IMG/VR virus record: IMGVR_UViG_3300021978_000001
Span: 224,001-288,000 of that record
Length of the DNA stretch: 64,000 bases
Direction: 5' to 3' (one strand)
From: a virus
Lineage: Duplodnaviria; Caudoviricetes
The first letter of the stretch is position 1. Every line of letters begins with the position of its first letter. A program made the translations under genes and the position numbers. The notes below the pieces were generated by a model, which was given only the letters and a program-made list of their open reading frames with translations, ran no database searches and was not told where the DNA came from. Shown here in pieces: positions 30,802 to 64,000 of the stretch.

Positions 30802-31503
30802 TTACAACGCGCCTCTCTTTAAAAGCTCCTGTTGGAACTTCTCTTCTCCCAGGCGAGCCCAAAGCTCGCTCGGGTCCTTGGCAGGTAACTTCATCCGCGC
30901 GGTATGCGTGAAGTCCCTACCGTACTTCTCTTGAAACTCACGCCAAAAACGCTCGCCTCCCCAATCCGTATCAAAGGCCACAATCACCGTATCCACATAA
31001 CGACGAAGGAACTCGATCTGATTACGACTGACATTTGCGGTGCCCGCGCATAACGTGTTCGGGAACACACGCAACAAGGGAGGCAGGTCAAACAAACCCT
31101 CGCACAAGTACACGGTACGTGTTGACCAGATGTGAGGCATCACCAGATGCGTTCCAAAGAAAATAGCATCGATACCTGACTTCTCCAGGTAAAACTTGGA
31201 GTAGTCCTTGACCGCAGGATCAGGGCTACGCAGTTGCAAACCCCGTACTTTCCCCAACGCATTGGTGATGGGGAAAATCAGCTTACCCTTCAAGCGGTAA
31301 CCATTGGACGACCATTCACACCACCGAGAAGCATCCACGCCTTCGCCCACGACTCGGGGTGGCCACACTTCCTTCGGAAAATAACCGATACCGAGTTGAC
31401 GCGCTTGCTCCAGGGGCACTCCTCGCGCGCGAAGGTAACTCGATGCCTCCGTATGCTCAAGATGGGTCTGCGCTTGTGTCAGGATCGTGTCCAGGAAGCT
31501 CAT
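30802..31503 (-). CDS. DnaG-like primase catalytic/TOPRIM core lacking the zinc-binding domain
   Basis: 'YLRARG', 'LIFPI...G...G...R', 'YLCEGLFD', 'AFDTD..G', 'KDPSEL'. Confidence 0.85.
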   Translation of the reverse strand: MSFLDTILTQAQTHLEHTEASSYLRARGVPLEQARQLGIGYFPKEVWPPRVVGEGVDASRWCEWSSNGYRLKGKLIFPITNALGKVRGLQLRSPDPAVKDYSKFYLEKSGIDAIFFGTHLVMPHIWSTRTVYLCEGLFDLPPLLRVFPNTLCAGTANVSRNQIEFLRRYVDTVIVAFDTDWGGERFWREFQEKYGRDFTHTARMKLPAKDPSELWARLGEEKFQQELLKRGAL

Positions 31504-57237: not shown

Positions 57238-58896
57238 TCATTCTTCCTCGCTGCTCACATCCTCGGAGTCATCGATACCCAAATCGACTGCGACCGAACT
57301 CAGCGTGTTGCCGTCAGGGGCCTGCACTGAAACGCGATCCTGCGCGAGCATCTGTTCCTCGTTTTCCATCTCCTCAAGCATCGCGACAGCTACCTGCATC
57401 TCTTGGTCAATTTCATCCGCATCCACTTCTTCCGACCCTTCAGGTCGAGCCACCCCGAGCCGTTCCTCCAGCTCTTGGATAATCTCACCGGGAAGAGTCT
57501 CTGTCTCCTCTGCCTCTTCGGAGCGTGCGCGGTCTTCCCTCACAGACGACACAGGCGAGGTCTCCCACAAGCCCTCAAGGTCCTCGATGTCCTGGTCAGC
57601 GAGGTTAAACAAGGTGTCGATGCTCTCGGTGCCCGGATTATCGAGATCAATCTCATCCTCCAGGCCCTCTTCCTCTCGATCCGCAGCATCCGCAAGCGAC
57701 TCGTAATCCAGGAGATCACCTTCGGGCTCGCATTGCTCCAGGGGCTTGATGTAGGTCAGGATACGCAGCTCCTCATCGGTCGCTGCTTCCAAGAGATGGC
57801 GACGAATCTGTGCACCCTCTTCCCTCAAGTCAGAAGAGGGGTCTCGACCAATGAAGGTTTGACGCAGCTCTTGAGGGCTCATGTCCGGGTTCGCTTTTGC
57901 ATGATCCTCATAAGAGTACGAGACCTGGTTATTCTCGGTCACGTACTCGCTGTAGTTCCCCTGCAAGAGATCGAGCGCGCGTTCGATGTCCTCATACCCG
58001 AGGCGCGTGAGCACCTGACGGTACATCTCTTCCTTGTCGCTCTCTTCGATGCTATCTCCAGGTGTCATTGCCTGCAACAACCCTTGCCCTGCGGATTCCT
58101 CCACAGAGTAGCGAGATACCGCAGGACGCACCGTCCTCTGACTAACCGAAGAGTCGATCAAGGCAGAAAACACGGGATCACGCAAGGCCATGATATAACT
58201 CTTCACGCGGTCGATCGTTTCCACATCGAGGTACCCACGGAAGCTCGACTCCACATGTTGGAAGGAAAAAAGATCCATCTGAGCCGCTGTCAAATCGTTG
58301 CTCAAGCATTGCAAGAGACGACGCATGGTCTGTTCGGCGTGCTCCTTGAAGATCTTCATCCTTGGCCGCCACACATAGGAATCGTCTCGAATCGCGTCCC
58401 TCTTCACAGAGGTCTTGCGCGTCTTACTCATGCGCTTGAGCTGCTCGCTGTAGTCCTTGTAATCCGAGGGCAACGTCAGAAGCAGAAGGACATACGAATA
58501 GGCTTCGTGGAAGTTGTGATTCGAGATCACCCTCAAGACCATCGTGATCATGTCGTGAGACGTTTCTGGAGCCTTGAAACGACTGCGCGCTTCTCTCACC
58601 GCTCCACAAAACATGTGCTCTGACCACACATCCACGAAACCACCGTTGCCATGGTCCAACGCTTCCTCCAACTCCCCGTCATCCACATTGGCCGCCAGGA
58701 CCCAAGCCGCGATGTACATCCTCAAGATGTTGTGAGGCTCCAGCTTCGCATAAGCCAGAGGATTGAAACGTGAACCGACACGTTCCATCACAAGACGGTT
58801 GATTCGTTGCAGGTCCAGCGCCCCGTCAGGGAGGCCGTTCACCTGGAATCGACGGGAGAATACGGGATCATTAGGGTTCAAGTCGTCACGCTGCAT
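57238..58896 (-). CDS. Acidic-tailed hypothetical protein, possibly a very divergent sigma70-like factor
   Basis: 552 aa ORF is real (RBS AGAGG); sigma similarity is weak and by eye only. Confidence 0.55.
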   Translation of the reverse strand: MQRDDLNPNDPVFSRRFQVNGLPDGALDLQRINRLVMERVGSRFNPLAYAKLEPHNILRMYIAAWVLAANVDDGELEEALDHGNGGFVDVWSEHMFCGAVREARSRFKAPETSHDMITMVLRVISNHNFHEAYSYVLLLLTLPSDYKDYSEQLKRMSKTRKTSVKRDAIRDDSYVWRPRMKIFKEHAEQTMRRLLQCLSNDLTAAQMDLFSFQHVESSFRGYLDVETIDRVKSYIMALRDPVFSALIDSSVSQRTVRPAVSRYSVEESAGQGLLQAMTPGDSIEESDKEEMYRQVLTRLGYEDIERALDLLQGNYSEYVTENNQVSYSYEDHAKANPDMSPQELRQTFIGRDPSSDLREEGAQIRRHLLEAATDEELRILTYIKPLEQCEPEGDLLDYESLADAADREEEGLEDEIDLDNPGTESIDTLFNLADQDIEDLEGLWETSPVSSVREDRARSEEAEETETLPGEIIQELEERLGVARPEGSEEVDADEIDQEMQVAVAMLEEMENEEQMLAQDRVSVQAPDGNTLSSVAVDLGIDDSEDVSSEEE

Positions 58897-58933
58897 GGCA
58901 CGCCTCTCTGTTCAAGGTCAGGCTGTTCAAGGA

Positions 58934-59194
58934 TTATTCGTGGATGACAAGCTGGACGTTCTTTCCCTGCTTGCATCCAAGCGCATAGAAAAGGGTCTGC
59001 ATGCTCTCAAGGATGCAACCCTTGCGTCCGATGATCTTTCCCCGATCATCGGGAACCACGTCAATCGAGTACACCACAGAACGCCCTTTCTTGATCACGT
59101 GAATATCCACGTATTCAGGGTACTCCACCAGGGACTTGACCATATCGGTCAAGAGGGGCTTGATCGGGGTCGGCTTGGGTTCTTCATACAACAT
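58934..59194 (-). CDS. khpA: KhpA-family single KH-domain RNA-binding protein
   Basis: Start moved to ATG 59194 behind AGGAG; 'MVKSLVEYPEYV', 'VVPDDRGKIIGRKG..LESM' GxxG loop. Confidence 0.85.
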   Translation of the reverse strand: MLYEEPKPTPIKPLLTDMVKSLVEYPEYVDIHVIKKGRSVVYSIDVVPDDRGKIIGRKGCILESMQTLFYALGCKQGKNVQLVIHE

Positions 59195-59518
59195 GATGTC
59201 TCTCCTGTTCTTTTGCTTCCATAACTCCAGAATACCACACAAGAAAGCCGGTAGCTTCCCCATGTACCCTATCCTTACGCAAAAGAACGGGGGAGTGTTC
59301 GATATTGGATGCAACCCTTCCGTTCCAACCTCCATCTCTTTTCAAAATGGACGCGGTATAGAGAGCTTTCGGTCAAGATTCCAGATCACGTTCCGAGTCC
59401 TATCCCAGGTCATCCTTTTTCCCGGATGACCCCTACAGACACAACCCGTTCAAGAGAAGAGAGTCCTCTCGAACCTCTTCCCGAACAATGAACCCGATCA
59501 AGCTCGCTCACATACTCT

Positions 59519-59556
59519 CAGTTCCCTGTTTCCAGTTCCCTGTTTCCAGTTCCCTG
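59519..59556. repeat. 14-bp tandem repeat x2.7
   Basis: CAGTTCCCTGTTTC-CAGTTCCCTGTTTC-CAGTTCCCTG; partial copy CCAGTTCCCG near 59742. Confidence 0.9.
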
Positions 59557-59790
59557 ACGTGATCACGAGCCCTCAAGCTCTCTCATCCCCCTTACTGGTC
59601 TACCTGAACTCCTCTTGGATCACCCCTTCAAGGATCACCCCCAGATAAAGCCCATCAAGCTCCTTATACGCGCGTGAGCGCGTATATCTCCCTATGCGTG
59701 CTTGAAGGGGCACCTTTAAACCCTCTGGTGACTTACGGAGACCAGTTCCCGTGTGGGGGGAGGCTTTCAGATCCTCCGCTTTAAACCCGA

Positions 59791-59876
59791 GCTAAAGCTG
59801 CCAAAGCTGATGCTTCTGCTGCTGATGCTACTGCATCTGCTGCTACTGCATTTGCTACTGCTGCTACTGCTTCTGT
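59791..59876. repeat. Imperfect GCT/GCA/ACT triplet microsatellite
   Basis: gctgatgcttctgctgctgatgctactgcatctgctgctactgc... Confidence 0.8.
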
Positions 59877-60744
59877 TTTTACTATGGTTTTTCTTTTCTC
59901 GATCATACGAGGAAAGAAGATCAAGGAACTTACTGGGGTAAGTTCCGTCATAGAACATATACTCTTCTCTCTCTGTAGAAGAGAGAAGAACAAGAAGTTC
60001 AAGAAAGAGTCTTTGAGTAAAGACTCTTTGACTGAAGCTCTGTTCTTGAAGATCAGAATCGGGAAGAGAGAGGGAAGAGGCTTGAAAGGTGTTGGAGGGG
60101 GTAGGGAGGTGTGATTGGATACCCGAGCCCTTCACAGAAAGGCTCTCAAACGTCACAGGAGCGACGGAGAGCCTCTTGAGGGGTTTGATGTGGGTATCGA
60201 GTCGCATTTTATCTTCCTTGCCTTCTACGTGCCTTCCAGGGGCCTTCTAAATCTTCCAGTTCTCTTACGTCAGATCTTCTGTGTTCTATGTGGTCTCCCG
60301 ACCGCCCTGGTTACTCTGTGAACACCGTCTCGTCCTTGAGGGCTGTCTTCCCAGATCCCTCAACACGTCCATAAGTCTCTCAGATGTAGCGTTCTCAGCG
60401 ACAAGAAAGGCATCCTGTGTCTGCATGATGCCAAGATCAACCTCATGATCTCTCTCTTGAAAGGTTCCTCGAAAGGATGCCTCAAAAGTTCCTTGCCCTG
60501 TCCAACGTCTCCTCAACCTCCACAGCCGTTATACGAGAAGGGAAGTCTCGGTCCATAAGTGATCTCTCTTGCTCTTGGAGTGCTCCAGGATGCAGGAGAG
60601 AGAACGCACACGTGACCAGGGGGAGTTACCGATAAGGATCGAGGTGCTATACCTCTTGAGAGACTCGGTTCCTCGTATCGAGCTTTTTTGTTTAAAGAGG
60701 GGAGACAGCAACCCCTCGCACGGCTTCTCTCAATGCTCCTGAAA

Positions 60745-60780
60745 AGACCTCCACGTTCTTTTGTGAGAACGTGGAGAGGT
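60745..60780 (-). terminator. Terminator/attenuator-like hairpin
   Basis: CTCCACGTTCT/AGAACGTGGAG (60749-60759/60766-60776) followed by GTCTTTTC on the minus strand. Confidence 0.55.
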
Positions 60781-60833
60781 GTGCCTTTTCAAGCCTTCAC
60801 CGTCCTCGCGGTTCATACCCCGCGACGAAAAAG

Positions 60834-60862
60834 AGTATGACTCCCCCGAGAGAGGGAGTCAA
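60834..60862 (-). promoter_or_regulatory. Sigma70-like promoter overlapped by a palindrome
   Basis: TTGACT (60862-60857), 17 bp, CATACT (60839-60834); inverted repeat TGACTCCC-N8-GGGAGTCA (60838-60861); second TTGACA at 60873-60868. Confidence 0.55.
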
Positions 60863-60930
60863 GCTCTTGTCAAGAGAAAAAAGTAGAATACCGAAAAAAG
60901 GGGAGGATCTTGGTTGTCCTGTAAGGGGGT

Positions 60931-61629
60931 TCAGGACTCGAATGAGAGGGAGGCGAGCTGGTCTTGGAGGTTGATGTAATCCTGCTCGACAAAGGACAGG
61001 TCAGGTTCCTGTGGGGTGTCGATTCGAGCGGCCAGTGCTTGGAGGACCTTGAACCTTGTTGCGCCGCAGGCTTCCTTGAAGATGCATGTTTTGGTGCATT
61101 CAGAGTTGGTCTCGTCGAGAAACCCGAAGCAACCCTTGACCAGCTTCAGGTCTTGAGGAGTCATCCCCCTTGCAGGCTTCGGGTCTCCTACCATGAAGTC
61201 GAAGGGGAGTGTATCAGGCACCAGGGGCTCGGGCTCGGGCTCGGGCTTTGCAACGGGTTTGGATACAGCCTTGGGTTTCGGTGCAGGGGTTGCTTTGGGT
61301 TTCGGTGCAGGCTTAGGGGGCTTGAGGCTGCCCGAAGGGAGCAAGCTGATTCCCACGCGGGTGAGTTGTCGAATCAACCTCTTCCTGGCGCTTCCGTTGT
61401 GGATGGAAGGGGTCGAGGTGATGGAAGCAACGTTCCCCTCTTGCAAATCCTGGAACAACGTCACCGCATCTTGAGCCAGGTACCGAAGGTCATCGGGTTG
61501 AGTCTCCACGGTGACGTGGGCCGTGATAACACCATCCTTGGTGAGCTTGGCGAGCTGTTCATGCGTGAGCCCGGTCAAACTCACAACCTCTTGTGGTTCG
61601 AGGTAGGCGTTCTTCTTGTACATTCTCAT
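60931..61629 (-). CDS. HTH (MerR/Xis-like) protein with C-terminal 4-Cys motif
   Basis: Start moved to ATG 61629; 'YLEPQEVVSLTGLTHEQLAKLTKDG'; Pro/Lys linker; 'CFG...CTKTC....C'. Confidence 0.7.
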   Translation of the reverse strand: MRMYKKNAYLEPQEVVSLTGLTHEQLAKLTKDGVITAHVTVETQPDDLRYLAQDAVTLFQDLQEGNVASITSTPSIHNGSARKRLIRQLTRVGISLLPSGSLKPPKPAPKPKATPAPKPKAVSKPVAKPEPEPEPLVPDTLPFDFMVGDPKPARGMTPQDLKLVKGCFGFLDETNSECTKTCIFKEACGATRFKVLQALAARIDTPQEPDLSFVEQDYINLQDQLASLSFES

Positions 61630-61674
61630 CGTTGAGTCTCCCTTGTCTTGTGTGTTCGTTCGCGTACCTGGCCT

Positions 61675-61703
61675 TTTATACCACAAGGCAGCATGAGTGT
61701 AAA
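61675..61703 (-). promoter_or_regulatory. Sigma70-like (probably early) promoter
   Basis: TTTACA (61703-61698), 17 bp ending TTGTGG, TATAAA (61680-61675). Confidence 0.7.
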
Positions 61704-61710
61704 GCCATCC

Positions 61711-63849
61711 TCATCGAGACAACCTTTGCTTGAGGCGTTGGTGAATCCAACCGTTGACCTCTTTGGCGAACTGCTCCAGGCGGTGGACGCGGATGTAGGC
61801 TTCCTTGGGCAGGAAGTCCAGGCAGATGGTCTCGGTGCCCTGGAAGCCCACGAAGAGCACATCCATATCTTCTCGGGTCAGGTCCTCGTACATGTTGCGC
61901 ATGATGGGGTGAGGATGGAGGTTTGTTTGTTTGCTGTGGTTGCCATCCGTGATGACAATGAGCATCTTCCGTTCTTCTTTACGGGTCTTGAGGCGCTTGG
62001 CGCCTTCCCAGAAGCCGTCCATAAGAGGTGTCCCACCATTTGGTTTGCTCTGGATAAGTTTTGTCAGAGTCAGCAGGTCGTTGGGTTCGTCGAAGTCATG
62101 GAAGACCGGAAAGCTCACCGACCCGAAGCGCGTGAACTGGTCACGCAGTCCTTGTTGCGTTGCTCTGATACCCTTGCTGGAGTCGTATGCGTTTTCTTCT
62201 CGGGCCGCTTGTTCTTCTGCGTAGTATTGCATCGAGGTTCCTTCCTGGAAACCGATGGCGCTCCACTTGACTCCGAGGTCTCCGAGGACCTCGGAGAACG
62301 CCATCATCAGCAAGTGTGGGTTGCCTCTACACATGGAGCCTGAGAGGTCCAGGACGATCTGGACGGCGGTGTTTTCGGCGCGGCGGTGCGTTTTCTTCTC
62401 GAAAGGTTTGGGTATGCGTTGTGTCGCCACGTTGACCAGCGTTCGATTCGATATTTTCCTACCACGCTTGAGGTTACGGAGCGTGCGCGTCTTGCGTTGT
62501 CCTCGCAGCAACAGCGCGAGTTGTGACTTGATAGCGGCCACATAAGGCTTGATTTTCGCCTGGGCTGCTTGGACATCGGGGATAAGGTTTGCTTTCTTTG
62601 CCGGGACAGGGAAACGGTCACGCGAGGTGGTGTAGGGGCGCGGACGCTTTAGGTTATTGTCCAGACCATCCTGGGCTCGCTTGACCAGGGCATCCGAAGG
62701 TTGCATGGCTTTCGTGGAGTTTGCGGTCGAGATGCCCCAGGTGAAATCCAGGTTCTTGGCAGGAGCCTCCGAATCATCTGAGGCTTTCTGTGGGCTCTCA
62801 GAATCGCCTGTAGCGTCTTCATCCTTATCCTGACCCTCGCCACCGCTTGGAGAGCCTTCAGAGGCTTCCTGTACATCCTCAGAGGTGTCACTTTGCCCTT
62901 GCCCTTGCCCTTGTTCGCCCTTCTCGGGCTTTTTGGTGCTTGAGTCACCGTTTGCGTCCTGGTTGTCTTGCTGGCGGTGCTCGCCTTTCTTCCCTTGTGA
63001 GGGAGCTTCTCCCTTTCCAGAACCTTGCTGTTTCTGCTGCTGCTGTTCTTTTTGCTCTTCGATAGCATTGTGGAGCTTGCCCAGGGTGCGGAGCGCGAGC
63101 GCCAGGGTGTCATAGGAGTCCCTTGCCTTGTCGGAGTCTGCAATCTCTTGTGCGAGGTTGTAGTCGGTCCACGCCTTCGCGTATTCGTCGTATTCATCGA
63201 GAGGAGCACGGTCTGTCCATTCTTCGATGATGTCACGCAGGTAGCACGTGATGTGGTCAATCTCTCGGAATTGGTCACGTTGCTCCAACTCCCACACGTC
63301 TTCGTGCGTGCGGCACAGGAGCTTGCGCGCGCCAGCCCACTCCTGGATACCGTAACGTTCGATCATGGCATCTTCGTAGATGTTCCAGAGCGAGGCGAAC
63401 AGGGAGTATTTGTAGCTGTAGCGCAACCCGGGAGTCCAGCACTGGTCGAGGATGGCTTTGAGCCTTGTCATGTCCACAGAATCCCCACGGACCGTGTAGA
63501 GGCTGTGCAGGGCCTCATGGATGATGCCTCCATCAAGGATAGCGAGGTACTCACGCGTGACTCTTGGGGGTGTCATCCCGATGACGATGGTCTTGGTCTT
63601 CGAGATGTTGATGCTCGCGTTTGGCCAGTACATCACAAGCTCTTGCATGGTCGGGGCAACGAGCTTCGTGTGGTAGTTCAAGATGTATTGCATGAAGGTG
63701 TGCAAGGGGAAGTCGCTCGCGTTGTAGTACCTGCGACCCTTGCTGATAATTTTCGTGTCATGGTCCGCCTTATCGAGTAGCATGCGCGTGATGGCACCGT
63801 GCCCGCTCTCGATCCACGTCCCTTGAATCACGTCTTCCTTGTGTGCCAT
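61711..63849 (-). CDS. CobT-like protein: N-terminal HExxH metalloprotease-like domain plus C-terminal VWA domain
   Basis: 'GGIIHEALH...NIYED..IE'; Q/E/G-rich linker; MIDAS 'VLDLSGSM', 'GGTPL', 'IVITDG'. Confidence 0.85.
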   Translation of the reverse strand: MAHKEDVIQGTWIESGHGAITRMLLDKADHDTKIISKGRRYYNASDFPLHTFMQYILNYHTKLVAPTMQELVMYWPNASINISKTKTIVIGMTPPRVTREYLAILDGGIIHEALHSLYTVRGDSVDMTRLKAILDQCWTPGLRYSYKYSLFASLWNIYEDAMIERYGIQEWAGARKLLCRTHEDVWELEQRDQFREIDHITCYLRDIIEEWTDRAPLDEYDEYAKAWTDYNLAQEIADSDKARDSYDTLALALRTLGKLHNAIEEQKEQQQQKQQGSGKGEAPSQGKKGEHRQQDNQDANGDSSTKKPEKGEQGQGQGQSDTSEDVQEASEGSPSGGEGQDKDEDATGDSESPQKASDDSEAPAKNLDFTWGISTANSTKAMQPSDALVKRAQDGLDNNLKRPRPYTTSRDRFPVPAKKANLIPDVQAAQAKIKPYVAAIKSQLALLLRGQRKTRTLRNLKRGRKISNRTLVNVATQRIPKPFEKKTHRRAENTAVQIVLDLSGSMCRGNPHLLMMAFSEVLGDLGVKWSAIGFQEGTSMQYYAEEQAAREENAYDSSKGIRATQQGLRDQFTRFGSVSFPVFHDFDEPNDLLTLTKLIQSKPNGGTPLMDGFWEGAKRLKTRKEERKMLIVITDGNHSKQTNLHPHPIMRNMYEDLTREDMDVLFVGFQGTETICLDFLPKEAYIRVHRLEQFAKEVNGWIHQRLKQRLSR

Positions 63850-63902
63850 GGCTTATCTCCGTGTCTCTTGCTCTTCAAGCTGTCGTACTGTCGTCAGATT
63901 CC

Positions 63903-63931
63903 TTGTTACCACAAAACAAACACAGTGTAAA
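63903..63931 (-). promoter_or_regulatory. Sigma70-like promoter, same architecture as 61675-61703
   Basis: TTTACA (63931-63926), 17 bp ending TTGTGG, TAACAA (63908-63903). Confidence 0.55.
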
Positions 63932-63967
63932 AGGAAAAGGTTTTGAGAAGAGTCTCAAAACCTTTTC
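63926..63967 (-). terminator. Rho-independent terminator (15-bp stem)
   Basis: GAAAAGGTTTTGAGA/TCTCAAAACCTTTTC (63934-63948/63953-63967) followed by CTTTT on the minus strand. Confidence 0.75.
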
Positions 63968-64000
63968 ACTTGCTACTTGCCACTTGCTATCAGGGGTCAG

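Follow-up and report, generated by a model that had tools for sequence, protein, structure and literature searches.

The stretch of DNA analysed here (the window, 64 kb) is part of a phage record of 437,490 bp and contains a gene-free span of about 1.74 kb, which ranks second in size among the gaps of this genome on an ORF-based gene map. The span is bounded by the start codon of a KH-domain gene (ATG at 59194, with an AGGAG site) and by the stop codon of the upstream gene at 60931. The features considered below are the following:

59195-60930, no strand: the whole non-coding region, probably an origin region, from the KH-domain gene to the upstream gene
60931-61629, minus strand: gene before the gap, 230-251 aa, with a putative N-terminal MerR/Xis-like winged helix, a Pro/Lys linker and a C-terminal four-Cys motif
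60834-60862, minus strand: predicted sigma-70-like promoter (TTGACT-17-CATACT) aimed at the core; both hexamers conserved in L005, spacer different
60806-60825, minus strand: hairpin H1, just past the predicted transcript start; stem kept in L005
60748-60777, minus strand: hairpin H2, terminator-like, followed by TCTTTTC; absent in L005
60697-60717, minus strand: hairpin H3, loop TTGCTGTCT; nine-base loop identical in four lineages, two compensatory stem pairs
60551-60560, minus strand: repeat CTTATGGAC (GTCCATAAGT on the plus strand), first copy
60367-60376, minus strand: the same repeat, second copy
59600-60800, no strand: interval of the leading/lagging strand switch (GC-skew change point, step-function fit)
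59950-60126, plus strand purine-rich: AT-rich tract, candidate unwinding element, with perfect short hairpins at 60004-60029 and 59960-59992
59925-59946, minus strand: hairpin H4 in the middle of the core, with a 9-bp stem, a CCCA loop and compensatory changes
59870-59888, minus strand: A-rich anchor ACCATAGTAAAAACAGAAG at the start of the array, recognisable in all five lineages
59791-59884, minus strand: in-phase trinucleotide array (NAG)n, which is (CTN)n on the plus strand
59600-59790, minus strand: block between the array and the KH gene, G-rich on the gene strand, with GGGTTTAAAG twice, GGGGTGATCC twice and a palindromic hairpin at 59666-59687
59519-59556, no strand: 14-nt tandem repeat, 2.7 copies; one copy fewer in L002 and L004
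58934-59194, minus strand: KhpA-like KH-domain gene, first after the gap (PF13083, E 1.3e-16)

A gap of 1.1-1.7 kb is found at the equivalent place in four other lineages of related huge phages (designated L002, L005 and so on where they need to be told apart). The five lineages keep both the gap and the architecture of its core, with a neighbouring VWA protein that is 32-78% identical in the four lineages compared, and the gene order and strand to the right of the gap are identical in all of them. The comparison set consists of seven gap sequences from few relatives, three of them near-duplicates, and independent assemblies have the same gap junctions. No match was returned by blastn in distant mode against public phage records, and scans of IMG/VR with two flanking proteins, an AAA-protein alignment and two conserved DNA patterns found only the record itself. 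A metagenome scan for the anchor motif returned the known L005-L007 lineage (as L012) and four unrelated chance matches, and three distant contigs (L014, L015 and L020) were set aside, having a different context or ending before the gap.

The KH-domain gene takes the same position after the gap in all lineages, and the upstream gene is conserved in five. The model of the upstream protein reaches a pLDDT of about 80 over residues 20-115, and comparison with Pfam, PDB sequences and Foldseek gave weak fold matches to CvkR, BldC, Xis and CueR (best E 0.045). These are weak hints of a MerR/Xis-like fold, and as an initiator this protein is putative. The gap heads a replication/recombination module that includes clamp-loader subunits, ribonucleotide reductase, RecD2, RecA, an SbcCD-like pair, a PD-(D/E)XK nuclease and a 5'-3' exonuclease. 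The phage proteins also comprise a DnaG-type zinc ribbon (35.9 bits), a Toprim_2 domain and a DnaB-like match; Pol III alpha and an IstB/DnaC-like loader are absent from the phage genome or below the cut-off.

A preliminary description, made from the letters of the window, had seen no convincing gene in this region, and comparison with L002 upholds that view. Substitutions by codon position are flat in each of the three frames of the gap (48/53/49, 48/48/52 and 51/47/45), whereas the flanking genes show a strong third-position excess (1/1/13, 29/14/88 and 100/69/230), so that 59195-60930, judged by its substitutions, is truly non-coding. About 9% of the sites in the gap are divergent from L002, compared with 15% for the KH gene and about 31-36% for the third codon positions of three flanking genes; the gap thus diverges about 3.5 times more slowly than the third codon positions of its neighbours. 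Pfam and PHROG searches of the ORFs in the gap gave no match, and a search for tRNA and tmRNA found nothing. A changed genetic code is ruled out by the presence of all three kinds of stop codon in every frame, and a 160-aa ORF called inside the L005 gap has no relative in the window or in the genome.

The replication strands switch at the gap

The genome-wide cumulative GC-skew has its minimum at position 283,908 of the record, equivalent to 59,908 of the window, and a step-function fit places the break at 60,000, with about 95% support for 59,600-60,800. Cumulative GC-skew was among the checks proposed in the preliminary description, and its outcome is positive, with the minimum and the break both inside the region and a flip that is independent of gene strand. 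The exact position of the minimum within the gap is partly set by the composition of the element itself. Genes on the minus strand have a mean skew of -0.061 to the left of the gap (n=249) and of +0.049 to the right (n=40). Near the gap, the skews of 18 left and 9 right minus-strand genes show zero overlap (Mann-Whitney p 3.5e-5), and the third-position skew also flips. Since the flip occurs between genes of the same strand, it follows replication and not transcription: the replication strands switch at the gap.

A skew switch independent of gene orientation, as is characteristic of a bidirectional origin, is therefore present in the window, and it is repeated across the gap in L002 (p 0.001), L005 (p 0.0025) and L013 (p 0.03), and not in L017, where no flip is seen. 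In L005 the local cumulative minimum falls outside the gap. The genes on both sides point away from about 284-291 kb of the record, as expected for the surroundings of an origin and not of a terminus.

Anatomy of the gap

The core shared by the five lineages consists of a polypurine/polypyrimidine AT-rich tract, a hairpin in which compensatory changes occur, the A-rich anchor and an in-phase run of 25-36 NAG units. The AT-rich tract has a GC content of 36-40%, against 56% for the genome, and a 200-nt segment within 59850-60071 (38% GC) ranks second in the 437 kb for AT-richness. At 59977-60126 the purine fraction reaches 0.69, which belongs to the top 0.006% of the genome, and a CT-rich, AT-rich tract lies at the equivalent position in all lineages. 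The purine-skewed tract noted in the preliminary description behaves as a candidate unwinding element. In the centre of the core, H4 is fully paired in four lineages, with five of its nine pairs changed on both sides, and none of 500 shuffles was as good; in L017 a different hairpin occupies this position.

The array, at about 59791-59884, was initially listed as a GCT-type microsatellite. It is indeed there, and turns out to be the best-conserved element of the region, phased across lineages. In four lineages it is 25-36 units long, and at least 90% of the units have a central A (23 of 25 in the window itself), whereas L017/L018 have a 15-unit run with a central A throughout, a two-unit break and then an in-phase resumption. 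The commonest unit is CAG. The array is the top NAG-periodic segment of the genome (20 of 30 units, against 14 for the next best and a mean of 1.8), and its plus strand holds 19 CTG/CTA per 96 nt, the genome maximum (mean 1.86). The core is also symmetrical, the plus strand being purine-rich to the right and the minus strand to the left, through the anchor and the array that lie there. Each new leading strand would therefore begin with a purine-rich stretch copied from a pyrimidine-rich template.

Between the array and the KH gene, the block at 59600-59790 is 89-99% identical to L002. Its palindromic hairpin is nested between 59623-32 and 59701-10 and has a GTGA loop, inverted to TCAC in L002 and L004. 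GGATCACCCC occurs at 59617 and 59632 and CTTTAAACCC at 59714 and 59779, and other lineages have short repeats of their own in this block. The palindrome at 59558 was confirmed, and the hairpin at 59408-59431 lies inside a hypervariable block not kept by relatives. All the sequence features of the preliminary description are thus present, at most one or two bases off, including the repeats that it read as iterons. Classical iterons, in the sense of several direct repeats of about 17-22 bp that serve a neighbouring initiator gene, as in the lambda ori or Rep-iteron plasmids, are not established: what was found are two-copy short repeats, of which the 10-mers, taken singly, could arise by chance, and the copy-variable 14-nt tandem. 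All but CTTATGGAC are lineage-specific, and among the repeats first described it is this one alone, as GTCCATAAGT, that recurs across lineages, with two copies in the window, L002, L004 and L013 and diverged forms in L005 and L017. Copies of TGATCTCTCT lie at 60446 and 60560. No double-strand binding site common to all lineages was found in the gaps compared.

Upstream of the core, the predicted promoter is the sole promoter-like site within 58800-61100 (2.3 kb). It was also considered as a member of a repeated phage promoter family and rejected as such, with one further match in the genome, inside a gene. In the L005 form of H1, a U-A pair has become C-G and a G-C pair U-G, the latter being possible on the minus strand only. 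The terminator-like H2 lies about 85 nt from the promoter. By our reading of the alignment, its minus-strand form in L002 and L004 retains 10 of the 11 pairs, two of them G-U, while the plus-strand version breaks. The changes in H3 and H4 are between Watson-Crick pairs only. The Watson-Crick complement of the H3 loop is present in the arrays of L005, L013 and L017, and pairing with the array of the window needs one G-U. Taken together, the promoter and the compensatory and G-U changes in the hairpins indicate a predicted minus-strand transcript, and the region is probably also transcribed.

An origin reading and its alternatives

We consider it likely that the 1.74-kb gap is the bidirectional replication origin region of this 437-kb phage, with initiation in or beside the AT-rich core at about 59,790-60,130. 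The preliminary description had left a choice between an origin and a large structured RNA, and the skew minimum and change point inside the region support the former. The constraint over 1.7 kb exceeds the need of an origin alone, and therefore other functions probably share the region. Firing may rely on a single-strand track for an initiator, on a start pad for primase or on an R-loop. In the mechanism that we propose, an early sigma-70-type promoter 0.9 kb upstream would send a structured transcript towards the core, and the AT-rich tract would open. The three-base-phased array, with A on one strand and T on the other at every third base, would then offer a single-strand landing track to a phage initiator or loader, or to the phage DnaG-type primase, and synthesis would proceed both to the left, into the replication-gene module, and to the right. 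The DnaG primase of bacteria initiates at d(CTG) and d(CTA), beginning with the middle T (PMC2978363), and the CTG/CTA run of the plus strand may represent start sites of this type. It is a tentative and rather doubtful proposal that the (NAG)25-36 array is a new DnaA-independent origin element, either as a phased single-strand track for a filament-forming phage initiator or loader, or as a CTG/CTA primase start pad. The upstream transcript might assist, as an idea only, since UUGCUG in the H3 loop can pair with the CAGCAG or CAGCAA units of the array.

Among the alternatives, the one that survives best, albeit unlikely, is that the main function is that of a long structured ncRNA, or of a 1.6-kb leader of the KH operon, with the skew switch coincident in the same intergenic space. 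The conserved promoter on the gene strand, the compensatory changes in H1, H3 and H4, the minus-strand-only G-U pairs in H1 and H2, the invariant nine-base loop of H3 and two CCC-UUCG-GGG hairpins in the L013 gap would all suit such an RNA, as would an RNA-binding KH gene always following the gap and the nucleotide constraint across nearly its whole length. Even though 59900-60835 folds with a z of -6.5, it does so on either strand, and the purely Watson-Crick changes of H3 and H4 are also those of DNA hairpins. The structured RNA first suggested is partly borne out by the conserved promoter and covarying hairpins, while membership of a known family (GOLLD, ROOL and OLE had been named) is not: Rfam gave no match at gathering score over the whole window, and chance-level matches only for 58800-61200 at E up to 10. 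An RNA would leave the skew switch, the extreme AT-rich tract and the three-base phase of the array unexplained, and it is compatible with the origin reading rather than exclusive of it.

We find quite improbable a regulatory hub without origin activity, in which promoters, operators and a small RNA would serve the replication module and the adjacent winged-helix protein would be a repeat-binding regulator. The closely spaced promoter and terminator-like hairpin, the lineage-specific short repeats and the neighbouring gene with a putative MerR/Xis-like fold are what such a hub might contain, although a single promoter-like site in 2.3 kb fits it poorly, and neither the strand-independent skew flip nor a phased array of 75-110 nt conserved across lineages is accounted for.

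Small or decayed protein genes are very improbable. Several lineages have open ORFs of 146-182 aa or in the Ala frame, the ATG of the 146-aa ORF (59767-60207) comes after an AGGAAG site, and in four lineages there is an in-frame ATG ahead of the array. Against this, the substitutions of the 146-aa ORF relative to L002 are flat (13/9/10 by codon position; 4 synonymous, 20 non-synonymous), the open frame varies between lineages (Ser frame in the window and L005, Ala frame in L013), and the array would need A- or T-ending codons rare in this genome (GCA 19%, GTA 9%, GCT 16%, ACT 8%). The Ala-rich peptide, a plus-strand Ala/hydrophobic frame and the 146-aa ORF were accordingly rejected on substitutions, frame consistency and codon usage, in line with the missing Pfam/PHROG matches and the stops in every frame. 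It is hardly credible that the switch represents a terminus, the boundary of a recent inversion or an artefact of assembly: the rule that the leading strand is G-rich is borrowed from bacteria, but the genes point away from the switch, its junctions are common to independent assemblies, and the head-on genes to the right of the gap have the skew typical of that side of the genome which, with order and strand constant in five lineages, means that they were not recently inverted.

Comparison with known origins

The basal unwinding system of bacterial oriC consists of DnaA boxes, DnaA-trios and an AT-rich region (Richardson 2016, as reviewed in PMC10797057), the trios being 3'-G/A-A-T-5' repeats close to a DnaA box, in a few copies (PMC10797057). 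The complement of the B. subtilis trio strand is quoted as CTACTATTACTTCTACTA in work on the DnaD recognition element (PMC10201434). As in oriC, one strand of the phage core presents, 5' to 3', an AT-rich tract (38% GC, 59850-60071), then a three-base repeat with a central A, and then a GC-richer segment. Some array units (TAG, TAA and AAG) are identical to those of the B. subtilis trio strand, and the opposite strand of the array is a repeated TnnT. Contrary to the trios, which are present in a few copies, the array runs to 25-36 units, is dominated by CAG and not by TAG, and has no box nearby. No DnaA box (TTATCCACA-like) occurs with up to one mismatch in any of the seven gaps; with up to two mismatches there are 0-3 sites per gap (0-1.8/kb, against 2.26/kb in the genome), none of which adjoins the array. 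A phage DnaA was not found either, with PF00308 reaching only 15.4 bits, below the cut-off, in an AAA_5 protein and PF08299 giving no match. Since the gap has no DnaA boxes and the phage no DnaA gene, this is not a copy of oriC, and host DnaA is probably not used. A trinucleotide-phased element similar to the DnaA-trios can therefore exist without boxes or a phage DnaA gene, and either three-base-phased single-strand origin recognition extends beyond DnaA, or the phase is due to the start sites of primase. Both outcomes would bear on how replication begins in a 0.4-Mb phage that encodes a clamp loader, helicase and primase of its own.

About 30% of huge phage genomes have a GC skew indicating bidirectional replication (Al-Shayeb et al. 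2020, PMC7162821), and this genome represents another such skew-defined example. In the literature searched, huge-phage origins appear as GC-skew patterns only, and the passages of Al-Shayeb et al. consulted present skew as a genome-level pattern, with no origin sequence (PMC7162821). In the present genome the switch is assigned to a single gap with conserved anatomy and narrowed to a core of about 300 nt common to five lineages, which constitutes a concrete, testable sequence. The element would also be a practical marker for genome start points and for read-depth estimates of replication rate in this phage group.

Other origins depend on a transcript: T4 oriF and oriG have a promoter and a downstream unwinding element and use an R-loop primer, and the ColE1 RNA II and T7 primary origins are also transcript-dependent. 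At T4 oriF/oriG and ColE1 a transcript and an origin go together. A phased trinucleotide array is not known from the T4 oriF/oriG, ColE1 or T7 primary origins. Contrary to these, about 0.9 kb separates the phage promoter from the core, and a terminator-like hairpin lies within this distance. Like them, the gap has a conserved predicted promoter, recognised from sequence, that is aimed at an AT-rich tract across a predicted structured transcript, and this RNA would turn purine-rich exactly at the skew switch.

Skew switch and a probable replication origin

The full virus record has 437,490 bp, with terminal repeats of 149 bp, and the window (its bases 224,001-288,000) carries nearly all of its genes on the minus strand. 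Over the whole genome, the cumulative GC skew drops from around 25 kb to one minimum at 283,908 (window 59,908) and rises afterwards, and the break in a two-level fit across 240-330 kb falls at window 60,000 (approximately 95% support for 59,600-60,800). Both positions lie within the stretch which the preliminary description had regarded as either an origin or a large structured RNA (59195-60740), and the cumulative-skew check proposed there thus favors the origin. The gap at 59195-60930 is therefore supported as the probable replication origin of this phage.

Skew is positive, also at third codon positions, in the minus-strand genes just right of the gap, whereas just left of it both values are negative, with no overlap between the sides (18 left vs 9 right genes, p 3.5e-5). 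Genome-wide, minus-strand genes average -0.061 left of the gap and +0.049 right of it, with a mean of +0.054 for plus-strand genes on the right. Since this flip occurs between genes of the same strand, and the gene strand switches only near 291 kb and not at the skew break, it is no by-product of transcription. Genes on both sides of the gap area are directed away from it and, applying the rule that the leading strand is the G-rich one, skew and gene orientation indicate an origin and not a terminus. Skew patterns of such kind are attributed to about 30% of huge phages (PMC7162821).

Exact-protein look-ups yielded four further lineages sharing the gene order of VWA protein, a gene of ~230-270 aa, gap, KH gene, and clamp loader plus reductase. 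The gap measures 1.1-1.7 kb in every lineage, and the independent lineages behind the conservation described here are few, five in all. The relatives are:

L002, L004: close relatives of the window
L005, L006, L007: gap sequences identical to each other; VWA protein 54% identical to that of the window
L013: VWA protein 32% identical to that of the window
L017, L018: one lineage, reached via the neighbouring AAA protein

A flip in the skew of same-strand genes across the gap is likewise present in L002 (p 0.001), L005 (p 0.0025), and L013 (p 0.03); in L017, the same test across the gap gave no flip.

A constrained, non-coding gap and its array

The absence of a convincing gene had been noted from the start, and the whole span 59195-60930, the second-largest gap of the genome in an ORF-based gene map, is gene-free, with stops of all three kinds crowding all six frames. 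The deciding evidence is a comparison of the gap and its flanking genes with L002, whose DNA is ~86% identical. The flanking genes show a third-position excess of substitutions (1/1/13, 29/14/88, and 100/69/230 by codon position), unlike the gap, where they are flat in every frame (48/53/49 and similar); a 146-aa ORF within it has 13/9/10, and its codon changes are synonymous in 4 cases and non-synonymous in 20. Judged by these patterns, the gap is non-coding. It is also under sequence constraint by the same comparison, with ~9% of sites differing vs 31-36% at the third codon positions of three neighbours, and blocks such as 59700-59999 and 60100-60199 being 92-99% identical vs 70-85% in the surrounding genes.

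All the repeats and hairpins listed in the preliminary description are present. From the KH-gene side towards the promoter, the elements of this half of the gap are:

G-rich block on the minus strand, beyond the array on the KH-gene side: lineage-specific repeats, the palindromic hairpin, and the 14-nt tandem repeat
59519-59556: 14-nt tandem repeat, 2.7 copies in the window, one copy fewer in L002 and L004
59666-59687: palindromic hairpin TATACGCGC-GTGA-GCGCGTATA, perfect stem
59791-59884, minus-strand reading: triplet array, in phase, 25-36 units across lineages, mainly CAG, TAG, and AAG
A-rich anchor ACCATAGTAAAAACAGAAG, minus-strand reading: recognisable in all five lineages
59946-59925, minus: hairpin H4, 100% paired in four lineages
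AT-rich tract, CT-rich in minus-strand reading: perfect short hairpins within
Motif CTTATGGAC, minus-strand reading: two copies in most lineages

The window's array is the strongest NAG-periodic stretch of the genome (20/30 units, next best 14, mean 1.8, sd 1.55), and across lineages at least 90% of the units have a central A. In L017/L018, a first unbroken run of 15 units is followed by a two-unit break, after which the array resumes in phase. On the complementary strand, 96 nt contain 19 CTG/CTA, the highest count in the genome, and each lineage has 16-20. As coding sequence the array was rejected: its codons would all end in A on one strand (GCA, GTA, ACA, GAA) or in T on the other, and such codons are a minority in this genome (GCA 19%, GTA 9%, GCT 16%, ACT 8%); the lineages differ in which frame is open; first and third codon positions are fixed with the middle one variable; and, in the lineage comparison, the shared ATG has no good ribosome-binding site ahead. 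On these grounds the array is not coding. Other non-coding gaps of 1.3-1.6 kb occur outside the window in the same ORF-based map (genome 369,806-371,440, 124,255-125,720, and 126,871-128,165), and none of the three contains a NAG array.

The AT-rich tract, which on the plus strand is the purine-skewed tract of the preliminary description, includes a 200-nt stretch that ranks second in AT content genome-wide; the sole 200-nt stretch surpassing the origin core in AT content lies outside the window (genome 65,755-66,022, 37% GC). The skew minimum sits between H4 and the A-rich anchor. The composition of the element is polarised in the same sense as the skew of the whole genome, and the element thus helps to set the exact position of the minimum.

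Within the G-rich block, the hairpin loop GTGA is exactly inverted to TCAC in L002 and L004 with identical stems, which looks like a small stem-mediated DNA inversion. The block 59385-59490, next to the tandem repeat, is hypervariable, with many indels.

Promoter, hairpins, and a predicted transcript

The other end of the gap carries the following elements:

60862-60834, minus: promoter TTGACT-17-CATACT, the sole promoter-like site within 2.3 kb
60825-60806, minus: hairpin H1, preserved in L005 via a double change and a U-G pair
60777-60748, minus: hairpin H2, terminator-like, its minus-strand form kept in L002 and L004 via G-U pairs
60717-60697, minus: hairpin H3, nine-base loop TTGCTGTCT, the same in four lineages

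L005 keeps both promoter hexamers with a different spacer, and its U-G pair in H1 is viable on the minus strand only. The H3 stem has two compensatory pairs, and in H4 five of the nine pairs are changed on both sides (0/500 shuffles as good). L013 has two UUCG-type hairpins. The promoter, the G-U pairs viable on one strand, the H3 loop shared by four lineages, and the hairpins of L013 point to minus-strand transcription of the opening part of the gap at least, and to this extent the structured-RNA alternative of the preliminary description stands. The same features would agree with an RNA as the main function of the gap, its coincidence with the skew switch being accidental, but this is improbable, as both strands fold equally (z = -6.5), H3 and H4 change solely between Watson-Crick pairs, and no Rfam family matched. 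Thus, the structured transcript would be a part of the origin region, and not a competing identity.

The H3 loop includes TTGCTG, which is complementary to CAGCAA and, if one G-U is allowed, to CAGCAG; both occur as units in the array, which lies 0.8 kb downstream, and L017 has TTGCTGCTT at a comparable distance. A long-range pairing between the loop and the array is possible.

Neighbouring proteins and possible modes of initiation

The gap is bounded by the following genes:

58934-59194, minus: KhpA-like KH-domain gene (PF13083, E 1.3e-16), on the left
60931-61686, minus: 251-aa ORF, on the right
60931 to genome 291,083: five head-on genes right of the origin, namely the 251-aa gene, VWA, AAA_5 ATPase, a 330-aa gene, and a 235-aa ORF

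These five successive genes (60931-64000 and on to genome 291,083) are transcribed towards the origin, an order kept in all lineages; the counterpart of the 235-aa ORF in relatives is a lytic transglycosylase. The gene before the gap (60931-61629, minus) encodes a protein of ~230 aa, kept in all lineages, with an N-terminal domain (model pLDDT ~80), a Pro/Lys-rich linker, and, towards the C-terminus, a motif with four Cys (C-x-G-x2-DET-x3-C-x3-C-x5-C). The protein matched no Pfam family, and the fold of its N-terminal domain weakly resembles winged helices of the MerR and Xis/BldC types (best Foldseek E 0.045, TM by target 0.74-0.78 across ~54 residues). As a lead only, this predicted winged-helix protein is a candidate for origin binding or for regulation. 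The KH protein is the second candidate partner of the origin, given that KH domains bind single-stranded nucleic acids. Its gene is the first past the gap in all five lineages and, with 13 synonymous and 2 non-synonymous codon changes in 87 codons vs L002, evolves slowly and is, on these counts, under strong purifying selection. Left of it lies a replication/recombination module (clamp-loader subunits, ribonucleotide reductase, RecD2 with an intein, RecA, an SbcCD-like pair, a PD-(D/E)XK nuclease, and a 5'-3' exonuclease).

From this anatomy we infer three possible modes of initiation. In the first, the conserved promoter pointing at the core would allow a transcript-dependent start, as in T4 oriF/oriG and ColE1, with an RNA becoming purine-rich exactly at the A-rich anchor. 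In the second, the CTG/CTA-rich strand would serve as the template for DnaG-type primer starts, and primer extension would run leftwards, as the left-hand leading strand does. For bacterial DnaG primases, d(CTG) and d(CTA) serve as initiation sites, with primer synthesis beginning at the middle T (PMC2978363). The phage encodes a DnaG-type zinc ribbon, a Toprim_2 domain, and a DnaB-like match, and Pol III alpha was not found in its genome. These primase and helicase parts are scattered, with the Toprim_2 domain at window 30802-31503 (minus) and the zinc ribbon at a distant site of the genome, adjoining a 1001-aa ORF that weakly matches DnaB_C (genome 58,179-58,466 and 58,880-59,227).

The third mode would resemble the bacterial basal unwinding system, where DnaA-trios (3'-G/A-A-T-5') adjoin DnaA boxes (PMC10797057) and the opposite strand has TnnT motifs bound by DnaD (PMC10201434). 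The order of AT-rich tract, central-A trinucleotide array, and GC-richer segment is the same. However, the phage array is several times longer, none of the seven gap sequences has a DnaA box within one mismatch, and no DnaA is encoded in the phage genome, which places the phage element outside this family. Phage replication origins are already known as a kind of element, and this probable one appears to be a new variant in its anatomy: a long phased trinucleotide array, free of DnaA boxes and kept in five huge-phage lineages.
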